Source of the DNA: an uncultured archaeon
GTDB lineage: Archaea > Asgardarchaeota > Thorarchaeia > Thorarchaeales > Thorarchaeaceae
DNA: 64,000 bases
Direction: 5' to 3'
Assembly: GCA_964610875.1 (NCBI GenBank)
Contig: CAZSWP010000012.1
Span: forward strand, 23,056-87,055
The notes under the pieces are model-generated. The model had not been told where the DNA came from. It did no database searches and saw nothing but the letters and a program-made list of their open reading frames with translations. Made by a program: the position numbers and the translations under genes. Below, in pieces: positions 7,436 through 63,877 of this stretch (within the stretch, counting starts at the first letter, position 1; each line of letters begins with the position of its first letter).

Positions 7436-8011
7436 TTATGGCTTATGCCAGACAAAAGAGTAGTATGCTACATCGCCTGAGTCTTTGACTGTGGCAATAA
7501 TAAATTTCTTACGAACACTGGTCGCAAGACGTCCTGCCCTTACGATATCAAGAGGTACAACCCCTTTTCTTTGTGGAATCACATGTACAAGGAATGGTGC
7601 ATGATCCTTTCCAGGGCCGTGCTCATATACTGAGAAATCAGTACCAAACTTCAGTCCAGGTCTCACAATATATCCAAGAACTCGTAGTTTTCTATAGACC
7701 GTTAATATATCTCGAAAATCTTCTGAGGTCTTTAAGCCTCTCTCAATTACGTCCTCAAAAGATAGGATATTGCCTGTTGATGCATCAACCACAGATATCT
7801 TCCCAGCTTCAAGTAGATAAGCGGTTTCAATCAGGGACAATTCTAACGGCTTCTCAAACTCTGGACTCTTTGGCTTCCTAATGCCTACTGGTTGTCCAAA
7901 ATAATCATCTGCATAGAGTTGCGTCCCTTCTTCAGGATTCCACACAATTGCTCTATCACCGGCAAGTTCGGCATGAGCTATCTTCTTATCATCTGACACA
8001 AGATGCACCAA
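7436..8011 (-). CDS. endA: tRNA splicing endonuclease (tRNA-intron lyase)
   Basis: LSLIETAYL, GLKFGTDFSVY, catalytic Y/H/K (HAPF, SVRKK). Confidence 0.92.
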   Translation of the reverse strand: MVHLVSDDKKIAHAELAGDRAIVWNPEEGTQLYADDYFGQPVGIRKPKSPEFEKPLELSLIETAYLLEAGKISVVDASTGNILSFEDVIERGLKTSEDFRDILTVYRKLRVLGYIVRPGLKFGTDFSVYEHGPGKDHAPFLVHVIPQRKGVVPLDIVRAGRLATSVRKKFIIATVKDSGDVAYYSFVWHKP

Positions 8012-60472: not shown

Positions 60473-61240
60473 TCATTGTACGTGTTTGACCTCTGGAAAT
60501 GGTGGTTCTCCTTTTAACATCTCAAGAAATTCGTGAGCTCTAGCAATCCCAGCGTCTTCACCTTGGATGAAGAATGTGACTGAGCCTTCTGCTCCATTGA
60601 TGCCACCTGCCGCAATTGGGATTGTGAGCACACCGAAGAGTGCCTGAAGAGCATCTATCTCTGTGAATGGAATACCCTCAGGAATTGCGATTGCACCCAC
60701 TGGCCAACCGATTGTATAGTCCCACTCGTCCTTCCCAAACTGGCCTACAAAATCATCATAGGAAACAGGAATGAACTTCTCAAATCCTCCTGGCATCACA
60801 ATCGTCACATTCTTAGCGGCAGCGGCACCAATGAATGAACCCACAGTTCCACCAGTTTCGCTAGCAAGCAGGACTATCGGTGTCCAATCCCTATCAAATG
60901 CATTGACACTCTTGATTATGACATCCTTGGGGCCGAGCTCTGAGAGGACATCTATCACTTTCTTCTCATCCAGATATTCTCCTCGATGAAATATGGCATC
61001 ATGAGCACGATGTTCTTTCTGAGTGATTGTCATTCCCTCAGGCTTCGTCAGCCCTGCGATATGCTTTGTCTTATCGTAACTACCCAGTATCTCTTCAACA
61101 AGGTAACTGGAGGTTGTGCCAAGCGTGACGCAGAGATATCCTTCTTGTAGTGCAGTAGTGACCTCTTCTGTAGCGAGTAGGCCTTTTGCAATCAGTCTCT
61201 TACTTTCAGACACTGTGAGGGTGACAAGTAGCTTCTTCAT
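60473..61240 (-). CDS. Conserved-looking hypothetical protein
   Basis: 255-aa ORF with TLTVSESKRLIAK, GTT, GGTVG and GGINGAEGS motifs. Confidence 0.7.
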   Translation of the reverse strand: MKKLLVTLTVSESKRLIAKGLLATEEVTTALQEGYLCVTLGTTSSYLVEEILGSYDKTKHIAGLTKPEGMTITQKEHRAHDAIFHRGEYLDEKKVIDVLSELGPKDVIIKSVNAFDRDWTPIVLLASETGGTVGSFIGAAAAKNVTIVMPGGFEKFIPVSYDDFVGQFGKDEWDYTIGWPVGAIAIPEGIPFTEIDALQALFGVLTIPIAAGGINGAEGSVTFFIQGEDAGIARAHEFLEMLKGEPPFPEVKHVQ

Positions 61241-61449
61241 TCATTTTCGCCTATCGACTCACTATTGAGATTGCATTTTACTTTGTCGTATCGGACAAGG
61301 AGAACTACCACAATGAATGCATGTTCTAGAAACTACAAATTCTGACATATTTCTAAATAACCAAACATTGGAAATGTAAGAAAAATAGTAAGATTTCCCT
61401 GAAATATATGACCTTACATAGCAACGACCATCACAATATCTGAATCACC

Positions 61450-62934
61450 ATGCCTGACGTCTTCTGCTCTGTGAAGGTACCCATTGCATATGCTCAGCTG
61501 AGCGGGTACGAGAAACAGCGGCTGCGACAGATGTTAGGTAGGGACAGTCGCTGCATCAAGGACTTCCTTGGTGTCATCGAGGAACATGAGAAAGAGCTGC
61601 TTACAGGCAAGAACAATGACAGGGTCGAAAAGGGCCAGTTGGCGAAGCTCACCATGACCGCTATCAAAGGCGTGCCTGTACGTAAGCAACGCCTCTCAGT
61701 CCCTCATGACATGAAGGCGAGATACAGGCGTTCCTCGGTGCATGAGATATACGAGTGCATGGATACGGCCATTGCCATGTACGAGGCATATCTGAAGCTC
61801 AGGAAGAAGCTCGGTGCATCGCGTCCCTGTGCTGTGAACAAAAGTAGATGCGTACCACGGAACGCATACACTCGGTGCTTCGAGCTTATTGAATCTGAAT
61901 CCAGTAGATGGACCCTTGACCTGCGAGACTCCTTGGACTCGTCACCACAGGGTAGGTTCAGGCATGACAGACTGAAGATTCCTCTGAAAGTCTCAGACTA
62001 CCATCGAGAGAGGTTACAACAGGGTGAAGTGAAATCGTTAAAGATATTCACTGATTCATCTGGAAAGTGGTGGGTGTCATTCTCTGTGAAAGTTGACATA
62101 CCAACACCTGAAGAGGAAGGAAAGCCTGTTTCTGTGCTCGGCATCGACCTTGGTATCAAGAAGGCTGCTGTAACCACTTTGGTGACACCTGAGAAGGTCA
62201 GAGGGACGAGGTACTTCATACAGGAAAGCAAGGCTCTGCTCATCGAGAAGTACGACAGGCGAGTGGCTGAGCTCCAACGGGAGCTTGCTACTCGAAGGAA
62301 CAATGGTCTTCCGTACGATAGTGTCGCAAAGGAACTGAGACGAATCCGTCACAAGCGGTTGGATATCGCGAAGAATTATGATAGTGTGTTGATAACACAT
62401 CTCCTTGACTATATCGAAGAGCTCTCAAAGGACTATACGCTGTACGTGTCCATTGGGAAATTGAAAGGTATCCGAAAGCTGGCTCGTAAGGGCAACTACC
62501 GCGGAAGAAGGTTCAGAGGTATGCTACATTCGTGGGCATTTCACAGAATCACTGAGACCCTGAGATTCAAGCTGGAACTCCTCGGTTGGCCTACGAAAGG
62601 AAAGAGCTCATGGTTCAGAGTGGTGTCAGAACATGGGACATCAAGCAAATGCTGGAAGTGTGGGAGGAAAGGTATTCGACCATATCAGAACTACTTCGTG
62701 TGCCATACCTGTGGACACAGGACCAACGCTGACAGGAACGGAGCTATCAATATAGCTGCGAAAACAATCACGCTCACTCCATTACTTCATGAAGTGAGAG
62801 GACTAGGCAATTGGGCCAGCTCGGTGGAGCGCGGTCTGCGGCTGAAGACCCGAGGGACTTCTTTAGAAGAGGTCTCGGAGGAGGTCCTGACCCTCTACAA
62901 TAGAGAATCATCAGTCTCGGAGGGAGCGCGGTGA
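61450..62934 (+). CDS. tnpB: RNA-guided endonuclease TnpB (IS200/IS605/IS607 family) with rearranged RuvC-II; no transposase nearby
   Basis: GIDLG (RuvC-I), SIGKL, VSEHGTSSKCWKC...CHTC zinc ribbon, NADRNGAINI (RuvC-III). Confidence 0.9.
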   Translation: MPDVFCSVKVPIAYAQLSGYEKQRLRQMLGRDSRCIKDFLGVIEEHEKELLTGKNNDRVEKGQLAKLTMTAIKGVPVRKQRLSVPHDMKARYRRSSVHEIYECMDTAIAMYEAYLKLRKKLGASRPCAVNKSRCVPRNAYTRCFELIESESSRWTLDLRDSLDSSPQGRFRHDRLKIPLKVSDYHRERLQQGEVKSLKIFTDSSGKWWVSFSVKVDIPTPEEEGKPVSVLGIDLGIKKAAVTTLVTPEKVRGTRYFIQESKALLIEKYDRRVAELQRELATRRNNGLPYDSVAKELRRIRHKRLDIAKNYDSVLITHLLDYIEELSKDYTLYVSIGKLKGIRKLARKGNYRGRRFRGMLHSWAFHRITETLRFKLELLGWPTKGKSSWFRVVSEHGTSSKCWKCGRKGIRPYQNYFVCHTCGHRTNADRNGAINIAAKTITLTPLLHEVRGLGNWASSVERGLRLKTRGTSLEEVSEEVLTLYNRESSVSEGAR

Positions 62935-63120
62935 CGGTAACACACCGTGCACGAAATACTATGGAAATACCTTCTGCTGCTGGAAGTGATGGTCCAGATA
63001 CAACAGCAGGGGACAGAAGCCAGGACTGGCGTTCGTAGAACGTCAATCAAAGCTCTCATTGAGTTCGTACGTCCTCTCGAGGACGATCGAGGCGGCGACG
63101 CTGGTGAGGGAAGGGTGGAA
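62850..63120 (+). ncRNA. Candidate omegaRNA/reRNA scaffold (boundaries approximate)
   Basis: GC-rich tract overlapping and following the tnpB 3' end, with stems cggtg/caccg, ctgctg-ctgga/tccag-cagcag and cgtcctc/gaggacg; abrupt shift to AT-rich sequence near 63119. Confidence 0.55.
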
Positions 63121-63508
63121 TATAGAAGAGTCTTATAGGAATGTAAGATTTGTGTTATCTAGAATACGTGTCTTTTCGTTGATGTCCTTGATACTCATCT
63201 CAACGAGATTCTCTCTATTATATCTGTATCCGAGGATTCCAATGTATTTCAATACGCAAGATGTAGTGTCATGAATTCTCTCTTGGTAATAAGATGAGGT
63301 TCCAATTGTTATATCAATAAAAACACCAATATCACAAAAAGCATAATAGAAGAAAGACTTGTCAATATGGAATGAACTGATATGGACACATTGAGGAAAT
63401 CCCGATGAGGAATAGTACTGGTAGGAGAATGATTGAGGAACGGGGATGGCTATGACACAATTGCCATATCTTCACTTTTATCAACAACGACTATTACCTA
63501 ACCATGTT

Positions 63509-63877
63509 TCAAGATGAAATGACATTCTTTTTCTTCAAGGTCAAGTACATCCAAATCATTACAAGTTTTGTAATTATGATAATCCCAAGAAAGAACCAAG
63601 ATGCTATCAAAATAGTAATTATATCGATTGACACATTGACTAAAATCATGATGTAAAATAGTTGGCGTTGTTTGCTAGGTTGGTCATGTATTCTTCTGGA
63701 TAATTTTTCTTTCCAAGATTCGTCTTTATCTTCCAATGATAGCTTTAGTATATCAATCATAGTGAATAGAATAACCAAATTTACAATTTGGAAAACAAAA
63801 CCAATTATGATATCAATGTACAAAAGAATTTCGTCAACTATCGCCATTTTTTTGTTTCTCCTTTTTTCATGATGCAA
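63509..63877 (-). CDS. Hypothetical membrane protein (AT-rich)
   Basis: Three hydrophobic segments; real start probably MAIVDE after an AGGAG RBS. Confidence 0.55.
   Translation of the reverse strand: MHHEKRRNKKMAIVDEILLYIDIIIGFVFQIVNLVILFTMIDILKLSLEDKDESWKEKLSRRIHDQPSKQRQLFYIMILVNVSIDIITILIASWFFLGIIIITKLVMIWMYLTLKKKNVISS

Follow-up and report, generated by a model that had tools for sequence, protein, structure and literature searches.

A solo TnpB with a relocated catalytic glutamate in a thorarchaeal genome: a probable immobilised nuclease–RNA unit

The stretch of DNA considered here, called the window, comprises 64,000 nucleotides (nt) of contig CAZSWP010000012.1 from an uncultured thorarchaeal archaeon (assembly GCA_964610875.1) and carries, at positions 61450..62934, an open reading frame (ORF) for a TnpB protein of 494 residues. 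All coordinates of the window given below refer to its forward (+) strand. The reading that sequence comparison and structural modelling make probable is that this solo TnpB, together with its guide RNA (ωRNA), is an active but immobilised unit of a Thorarchaeota-wide family whose catalytic RuvC-II glutamate occupies an alternative position (Ealt). Family membership, motifs, fold, covariation in the family RNA, purifying selection and loss of the terminal repeats are all observed; from these we infer the nuclease activity, RNA ends, guide and immobility of the window unit.

In this family, the RuvC-II Glu has moved from the end of strand β4 (Gly336) to the end of strand β5 (Glu394). In the proposed scheme, the guide RNA would be encoded on the same strand as the gene, overlap its 3′ end and run to ~63157, to be followed by a guide of ~16 nt and a T-run. 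The usual form of the family combines a giant Cas1-like/Cas4-like protein (aCas1, the presumed integrase), an inverted repeat of ~17 nt and an ωRNA of ~310 nt; the window copy and its closest relative (locus L099) represent a stripped-down solo form, devoid of the aCas1 neighbour, the repeats, the 5′ domain of the ωRNA and a hairpin apex. Such a solo form is most likely immobile and would still make a working nuclease–RNA complex.

Fold and active site of the window TnpB

As far as sequence and model can tell, the product of the ORF is a structurally complete TnpB of the OMEGA type (obligate mobile element-guided activity), in other words an RNA-guided DNA endonuclease, with DNA cleavage as its predicted activity. 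It scores 107 bits against NF040570 guided_TnpB of NCBIfam (curated cut-off 100) and matches PF07282, the Cas12f1-like TNB domain, at 44.8 versus a cut-off of 26.3 (1.4e-11). The AlphaFold2 (AF2) model has a predicted local distance difference test score (pLDDT) of 90.5 and a predicted template modelling score (pTM) of 0.84. Its layout consists of WED and REC domains (residues ~1–225), a RuvC domain with a zinc finger (226–445), a short helical end (to ~466) and a tail that is out of frame. Structure comparison (VIA, residues 1–466) relates the model to Cas12f with Z 21.4 (root-mean-square deviation (rmsd) 4.5 Å, 380 residues aligned), to ISDra2 TnpB with Z 18.5 (rmsd 5.5 Å, 347 residues aligned) and to Fanzor2 with Z 17.1 (rmsd 4.5 Å, 370 residues). 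The zinc finger, CWKC-x13-CHTC with ligands C401, C404, C418 and C421 (62650..62712), is recognised by PF07282 and, like D233 and D428, kept across the 76 relatives aligned in this work, whose identity ranges from 64% down to ~21%. The ORF and codon coordinates of a first-pass annotation, made from the letters of the sequence, were exact throughout (494 aa, + strand).

In rearranged TnpBs, the RuvC-II Glu is relocated from β4 to β5 (PMC10691335). In the window protein, the RuvC-I Asp233 lies within GIDLG (62146..62148; D-L-G, not D-P-G) at the end of strand 227–234 of the model. The canonical RuvC-II Glu site is occupied by Gly336 within VSIGKL (62455..62457), at the end of strand 330–337. The alternative Glu394, within VSEHGTS (62629..62631), comes directly after strand 389–393 and six residues before C401, and the RuvC-III Asp428, within NADRN (62731..62733), stands at the start of helix 427–442. 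In the AF2 topology, neighbouring strands carry D233, G336 and E394 at their C-terminal ends, and D428 opens a helix. The initial claim that both Asp residues are intact, with Gly at the canonical Glu site, holds at these codons. So does the claim of a Glu 58 residues after Gly336, where ordinary TnpBs have VNPxxTS: when HMMER aligns the protein with canonical TnpB or Cas12f chains, E394 stands opposite the Pro of (V/I)DPxxTS.

The canonical RuvC-II Glu is present in 14 of the 76 aligned relatives, and the second Glu is absent from all 14; the remaining 62 lack the canonical Glu and all possess the second one. Because the two positions exclude each other across the 76 relatives, the rearrangement is not a matter of chance. 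Within the close family, D233, G336, E394 and D428 are invariant. In a tree of these database relatives, the canonical-Glu proteins are set apart from the rest, and the window protein and its sister P0002 are placed deep inside the Ealt radiation. With DLG-x158-E394-x6-C401xxC404-x13-C418xxC421-x6-D428, the window protein fits the pattern published for Ealt proteins, D{P}G-x(120,160)-E-x6-CxxC-x(12,18)-CxxC-x(4,8)-D (PMC10711439). Strand topology and sequence equivalence together predict a D233–E394–D428 catalytic triad, as in TvTnpB and Fanzor2.

The first-pass annotation had taken Gly plus relocated Glu as a mark of kinship with Fanzors. The positional half of this idea stands, since E394 falls at the position of E467 in Fanzor2; its diagnostic half does not, the trait being common to a broad prokaryotic clade. 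The observation itself is correct but not rare, because the RuvC-II rearrangement is invariant in hundreds of Thorarchaeota homologues, is widespread in prokaryotes and has been tested in TvTnpB.

The family ωRNA and its shortened form

The 3′ region of the family is a large structured RNA of ~310 nt, for which RNAalifold, run on 43 non-redundant family copies, gives 74 pairs, 48 of them with compensatory changes. A long-range helix closes this scaffold at ...AGGTYA, and sequences diverge beyond it. Conservation at the three codon positions is 0.82/0.88/0.59 in the core of the family protein and 0.83/0.84/0.82 in the C-terminal tail, which is disordered in the AF2 model. The family's conserved protein tail is ωRNA-encoding DNA, kept as RNA rather than as protein, a result of modest value in itself. 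The C-terminal extension initially ascribed to the window protein turns out to be the reverse, family proteins having ~558 aa and the window copy being frameshifted and shortened in its tail.

The DNA that follows the scaffold is often tRNA-like (L028:~7440-7474, L066:~7790-7806, L062:7871-7946, L097:7848-7925), with a 3′ half ending in CCA at one locus, T-arm-like pieces at others and tRNA-Arg(TCG) genes at ≤100 nt. Insertion beside tRNA genes, or guides aimed at them, could underlie this resemblance. No tRNA was found adjoining the window copy.

The window counterpart is a shortened ωRNA-like scaffold at 62925..63157, recognised by covariation and folding z-score, which overlaps the end of the ORF. 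It keeps 34 family base pairs in five helices and folds better than 200 of 200 shuffles (z = -2.7). Its closing helix pairs TAACA (62938-62942) with TGTTA (63153-63157), versus TGACC/GGTCA in the family, which amounts to two double compensatory changes, and a mini-hairpin pairs TCTTA (63131-63135) with TAAGA (63144-63148). Three parts of the family structure are missing here: the terminal hairpin lacks its apex, a small hairpin (columns 167-179) is gone, and so is the whole 5′ domain (alignment columns 13-69). No Rfam family is found in 61200-63600 at E <= 1. Near the end of the ORF, an insertion of 7 nt relative to all relatives (~62860..62870) shifts the frame and makes the last ~25 residues non-homologous; the ORF stops at 62932, with a second in-frame stop at 62938.

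The closest relative, L099, has 66% amino acid identity and a different gene neighbourhood. Both large RNA deletions of the window copy recur in it, and so does the block upstream of the gene; this block, AAATGTAAGAAAA.T.GTAAGATTTCCC, is common only to these two and is accompanied by a TATA-like AAATATAT (61370..61409). Since copies of only 66% identity, located at separate genomic sites, have these deletions in common, the short ωRNA form is long established and maintained rather than freshly damaged. Over residues 1-465, the ratio of non-synonymous to synonymous substitution rates (dN/dS) between the window copy and L099 comes to 0.086 (dS is saturated), and the window protein is under purifying selection. 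A naturally shortened scaffold, of ~230 nt versus ~310 nt in the family, could guide the engineering of compact nucleases.

Placed from the end of the family scaffold (...AGGTYA), a candidate guide of 15-16 nt, TCTAGAATACGTGTC(T), would occupy 63158-63173 and be followed by a TTTT run at 63173-63176, the whole feature spanning 63158..63176. A T-run after the scaffold suits an archaeal terminator that would set the length of the guide. As a separate observation, runs of 3-5 T located 15-18 nt after the scaffold occur in the window copy and in its paralogues L002, L003 and L007, and are inconsistent in other genomes.

The thorarchaeal family, its inverted repeats and its giant neighbour

Homologues of the window TnpB number in the hundreds at 53-66% identity, typically with ~558 aa, and come nearly all from Thorarchaeota metagenome bins; the Asgard host proposed at the outset is very probable (Thorarchaeota). 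All 12 of the 12 searched genomes of the same taxonomic family have 1-10 copies each, the best being 59% identical to the window TnpB, and the window's own genome has six more full-length, diverged paralogues (43-55%) as well as several fragments. One further locus, L008 (G000:C19:56321-56947), has a 233-aa open frame that matches only TnpB residues 4-215, i.e. the WED/REC half.

The family matches, as judged from sequence features, the already catalogued aCas1-associated Asgard TnpBs, namely the groups Cas1H-Asgard-1/-2, which are described with a GTTCACTCA motif (Altae-Tran et al. 2023, PNAS, PMC10691335); the match is made because an Asgard host, an adjoining Cas1 homologue and the exact GTTCACTCA reproduce the published description. 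The present analysis documents that this family uses an alternative-Glu active site throughout. In the window, the neighbours of tnpB are an ABC transporter and small unknown genes, with no aCas1-like neighbour. The absence of tnpA from the window, claimed from the first, is borne out. A tnpA acting in trans had also been envisaged: a search of the genome, which is 95% complete, gave no Y1 transposase, and its two IS607-type TnpAs flank another TnpB.

The motif GTTCACTCA occurs downstream of tnpB at 61 distinct family loci. An inverted left motif, GAGTGAAC(N)TCAACTG, lies upstream of tnpB at ~55 nt from its start codon, with a small hairpin and then a TATA box after it. The right-end inverse, CAGTTGAGGTTCACTC, is found ~100 nt downstream of the tnpB stop. 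Of 68 loci, 55 have the left-end inverted motif and 45 the right-end one (for example L022:5922 (+) and 7779 (-); L047:5928 (+) and 7761 (-)). An inverted repeat of ~17 nt containing GTTCACTC brackets tnpB alone and leaves the Cas1-like gene outside. A role of TTCACTCA as a conserved loop of the terminal hairpin was considered and dropped; the inverted repeat is the better reading because the same motif recurs inverted ~55 nt upstream of the start codon. Near the window gene, GTTCACTCA and both inverted motifs are absent, as are the inverted motifs from L099, and the family left-end motif GAGTGAACTCAACTG is absent upstream of the window tnpB.

When all flanking ORFs were clustered, the only recurrent neighbour of the family was a divergent gene for 1400-1900 aa, located 230-300 bp upstream of tnpB and present beside 37 of the 54 copies with enough upstream sequence. 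Examples are L021:314-5731 (-) and, in the window's own genome, C78:3518-7789, C3:150817-152415 and C37:35032-35769. An alignment of these giant proteins reveals invariant E102, H167 and D174-D177 with a PLNALLNYAG motif, and a second set, D420...K450 and Q503xxxY507, with the signature of PD-(D/E)xK nucleases. In a model of residues 80-640 (pLDDT 75.5), the first 145 modelled residues match Cas1 catalytic domains (5VVK, Z 8.7; 3NKE, Z 8.6) and also a casposase, the Cas1 fold matches having Z 8.5-8.7 over 115-122 aligned residues; the next domain has a Cas4 fold (7MI4, Z 8.5) and resembles RecB-type nucleases. A Cas1-like plus Cas4-like assignment of the modelled region is thus probable, these Z values being middling for a helical domain. 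Some 1200 further residues beyond the Cas4-like domain have no assigned fold. Neither Pfam, PADLOC nor a profile search against the PDB returned anything for the giant protein.

The genome also contains ordinary Cas1 genes: the Pfam Cas1 model matches two of them, one being a fragment at a contig end, and does not match the giant protein. The other lies among collinear small ORFs that resemble an adaptation module. Alignment of the giant protein with the genome's own Cas1 by hhalign was insignificant, yet the PxNALL motif was aligned. Contig C18 of the same genome carries two three-gene units of ~8.5 kb (L112:3219-11705 and L113:2670-9782), in which an IS607-type serine recombinase (MerR-type helix–turn–helix plus resolvase) is convergent to a giant Cas1-like protein (1838 or 1764 aa), itself encoded divergently from a TnpB of 731 aa whose RuvC-II Glu is in the canonical place (FENL). 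This canonical-Glu TnpB stands beside the giant gene, which is therefore linked to two TnpB lineages. Several giant Cas1-like genes could in principle act on the window copy in trans; the repeats they presumably recognise have been lost from it. The more interesting lead to emerge from this analysis is the pairing, at family level and outside the window, of a Cas1/Cas4-like giant with a Cas12 ancestor and a motif resembling CRISPR repeats.

Competing explanations and known TnpB systems

Several points weigh against an active unit of this family. The C-terminal tail of the window TnpB is frameshifted. About one-third of the family ωRNA and the small hairpin are gone, which could equally be decay. 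Saturation of dS may leave room for a recent loss of function. No second exact target of the candidate guide occurs in the genome, and matches with two mismatches occur near the control rate. The closeness of E394 to D233 and D428 is argued from modelled strand topology and sequence equivalence, and the assignment to Cas1H-Asgard from common features (host, Cas1-like neighbour, GTTCACTCA), not from accession numbers. Some of these points would also fit a decaying relic that has lost its partner, ends, tail and parts of its RNA and is nonfunctional, its frame not yet broken. The 7-nt frameshift with premature stops in the tail, the loss of the ωRNA 5′ domain, hairpin apex and one small hairpin, the loss of both terminal motifs, a candidate guide without target and the several plainly broken copies in this genome and in relatives all agree with decay. 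It is nevertheless unlikely, given that 494 codons are open with every catalytic residue and zinc ligand intact and dN/dS is 0.086. Moreover, the two large RNA deletions recur in a 66%-identical relative elsewhere, so that the short form must have persisted for long, the closing helix has been held by compensatory substitutions, and the tail that was lost owes its conservation to the RNA rather than to the protein, besides being disordered in the model. Maintenance of this kind could also mean domestication, i.e. an immobilised TnpB with a fixed 16-nt guide kept for a host function (defence, regulation or site-specific cutting). An 'active or domesticated' nuclease had been envisaged in the first-pass annotation; the enzyme is indeed predicted to be catalytically competent from its intact D233–E394–D428, and domestication is kept as a minor, rather improbable rival. 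Terminal repeats and aCas1 partner are gone while purifying selection and RNA helices are maintained, a T-run is found 15-18 nt past the scaffold in the window copy and three paralogues of the same genome, and the genome has no near-identical copies, the last point being weak since metagenome assemblies collapse repeats. However, searches of 5.8 billion proteins and of the 12 same-family genomes gave no orthologue of >66% identity, so that vertical inheritance of a syntenic gene is not in evidence; the closest relative has other genes around it, and no target of the guide was found. If the domesticated reading were true, the window copy and L099 would form the lineage of a fixed host gene, a still-catalytic TnpB with a minimal scaffold and a hard-wired guide, the nuclease being kept, unlike in TldR-type dead TnpBs.

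The remaining alternative holds that the enzyme is pro-Fanzor-like and, coming from the archaea closest to eukaryotes, would bear on the origin of Fanzors. A pro-Fanzor-like nuclease was the central proposal of the first-pass annotation and is now very improbable. Yoon et al. (2023, PMC10711439) recognise Fanzors and pro-Fanzors by two traits together, D-P-G in RuvC-I and the alternative Glu. This combination is found in <1% of TnpBs, in cyanobacterial IS607 elements; TnpBs that join the alternative Glu to D-hydrophobic-G fall into a clade of their own (PMC10711439). The Asgard host, the Ealt position and a Glu-to-Asp spacing of 34 residues common to the window TnpB and Fanzor2 speak for the proposal, as do IS607-type elements in the same genome and the looser usage of some authors, who apply 'TnpB2/pro-Fanzor' to all Ealt TnpBs. 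Yet D-P-G occurs in none of the 76 aligned relatives, all of which, the window protein included, have D-L-G. The clustered flanking ORFs yield no IS607 serine recombinase as a recurrent neighbour of the family TnpBs, and the IS607-type TnpAs of the genome adjoin another TnpB, of 731 aa with a canonical Glu. In a search with the family profile, Fanzor2 has E = 0.008 versus 1e-12 to 1e-9 for canonical-Glu TnpB and Cas12f chains, and the structural Z to Fanzor2 is below those to Cas12f and TnpB. With D-P-G, a defining feature, tested and absent, the strict pro-Fanzor label fails, and the window TnpB is classified by sequence as a member of the large Ealt/D-hydrophobic-G clade, of archaeal rather than cyanobacterial host, and not as a pro-Fanzor in the strict sense. 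Nothing in it specifically favours an Asgard route to Fanzors. For Fanzor origin in general the bearing is slight, the relocated Glu being a common prokaryotic variant and the other Fanzor fingerprint being absent here.

The reading of the window copy as an active, immobilised Ealt TnpB can be set beside the systems already described. Fanzor2 has been solved as a complex with the triad D324/E467/D501 around Mg2+ (PMC11832414). Fanzor2 (ApmFz2, PDB 9B0L) resembles the window TnpB in its overall TnpB-like fold, in a Glu placed six residues before the zinc finger and in the 34-residue spacing from this Glu to the RuvC-III Asp (E467-D501 vs E394-D428). HMMER places query residues 335-436 on residues 415-509 of the Fanzor2 chain, and hence E394 on E467, an equivalence at the level of ranges; a 24-residue query aimed at a residue-level alignment with Fanzor2 matched only retroviral zinc knuckles. 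The window protein differs from Fanzor2 and the cyanobacterial pro-Fanzors by its D-L-G, its lack of an IS607 TnpA and of an N-terminal nuclear localisation signal or extension, and its archaeal host, and Fanzor2 gives it lower sequence and structure scores than canonical TnpB and Cas12f do.

Closer counterparts are found among prokaryotic rearranged TnpBs. Across the TnpB tree, RuvC-II rearrangements occur in two major clades and in eight large branches, and some of these are specific to archaea (PMC10691335). TvTnpB of Thermoplasma volcanium, an archaeal Ealt protein, displays DNA cleavage that depends on a target-adjacent motif (TAM) and on the guide, with no collateral activity (Jiang et al. 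2023, PMC10530073). Like the window TnpB, TvTnpB and other 'TnpB2' or RIIr TnpBs (PMC10530073, PMC10691335) have a non-acidic residue at the canonical RuvC-II position, a compensating Glu ~45-58 residues downstream and D-hydrophobic-G in RuvC-I. TvTnpB differs in being part of an IS605 element with a Y1 TnpA, none of which was found in the window's genome. The window protein exceeds TvTnpB in size, the link of its family is to a Cas1-like protein instead, and the activity of this family is predicted from sequence and model. ISDra2 TnpB and Cas12f (PDB 8H1J/8EXA, 8DZJ, 9NZS) have the same WED–REC–RuvC–zinc finger architecture over their full length (Z 18.5-21.4), and in them, as in the window locus, the ORF overlaps at its 3′ end with the guide RNA gene; they differ in having the RuvC-II Glu at its canonical position, which Gly336 occupies in the window protein, and, compared with theirs, the family ωRNA is longer (~310 nt), the window version being shortened.

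The nearest counterparts are the aCas1-associated Asgard TnpBs, which have in common with the present family the Asgard host, a Cas1 homologue adjoining tnpB and GTTCACTCA downstream of it, while the window copy differs from them by the lack of both the aCas1 neighbour and GTTCACTCA. The interpretation of the motif also differs. In PMC10691335, GTTCACTCA was tentatively seen as the edge of a hypervariable guide; here it appears as one arm of an inverted repeat bracketing tnpB alone, and the published 'hypervariable region plus GTTCACTCA' may be such an arm.

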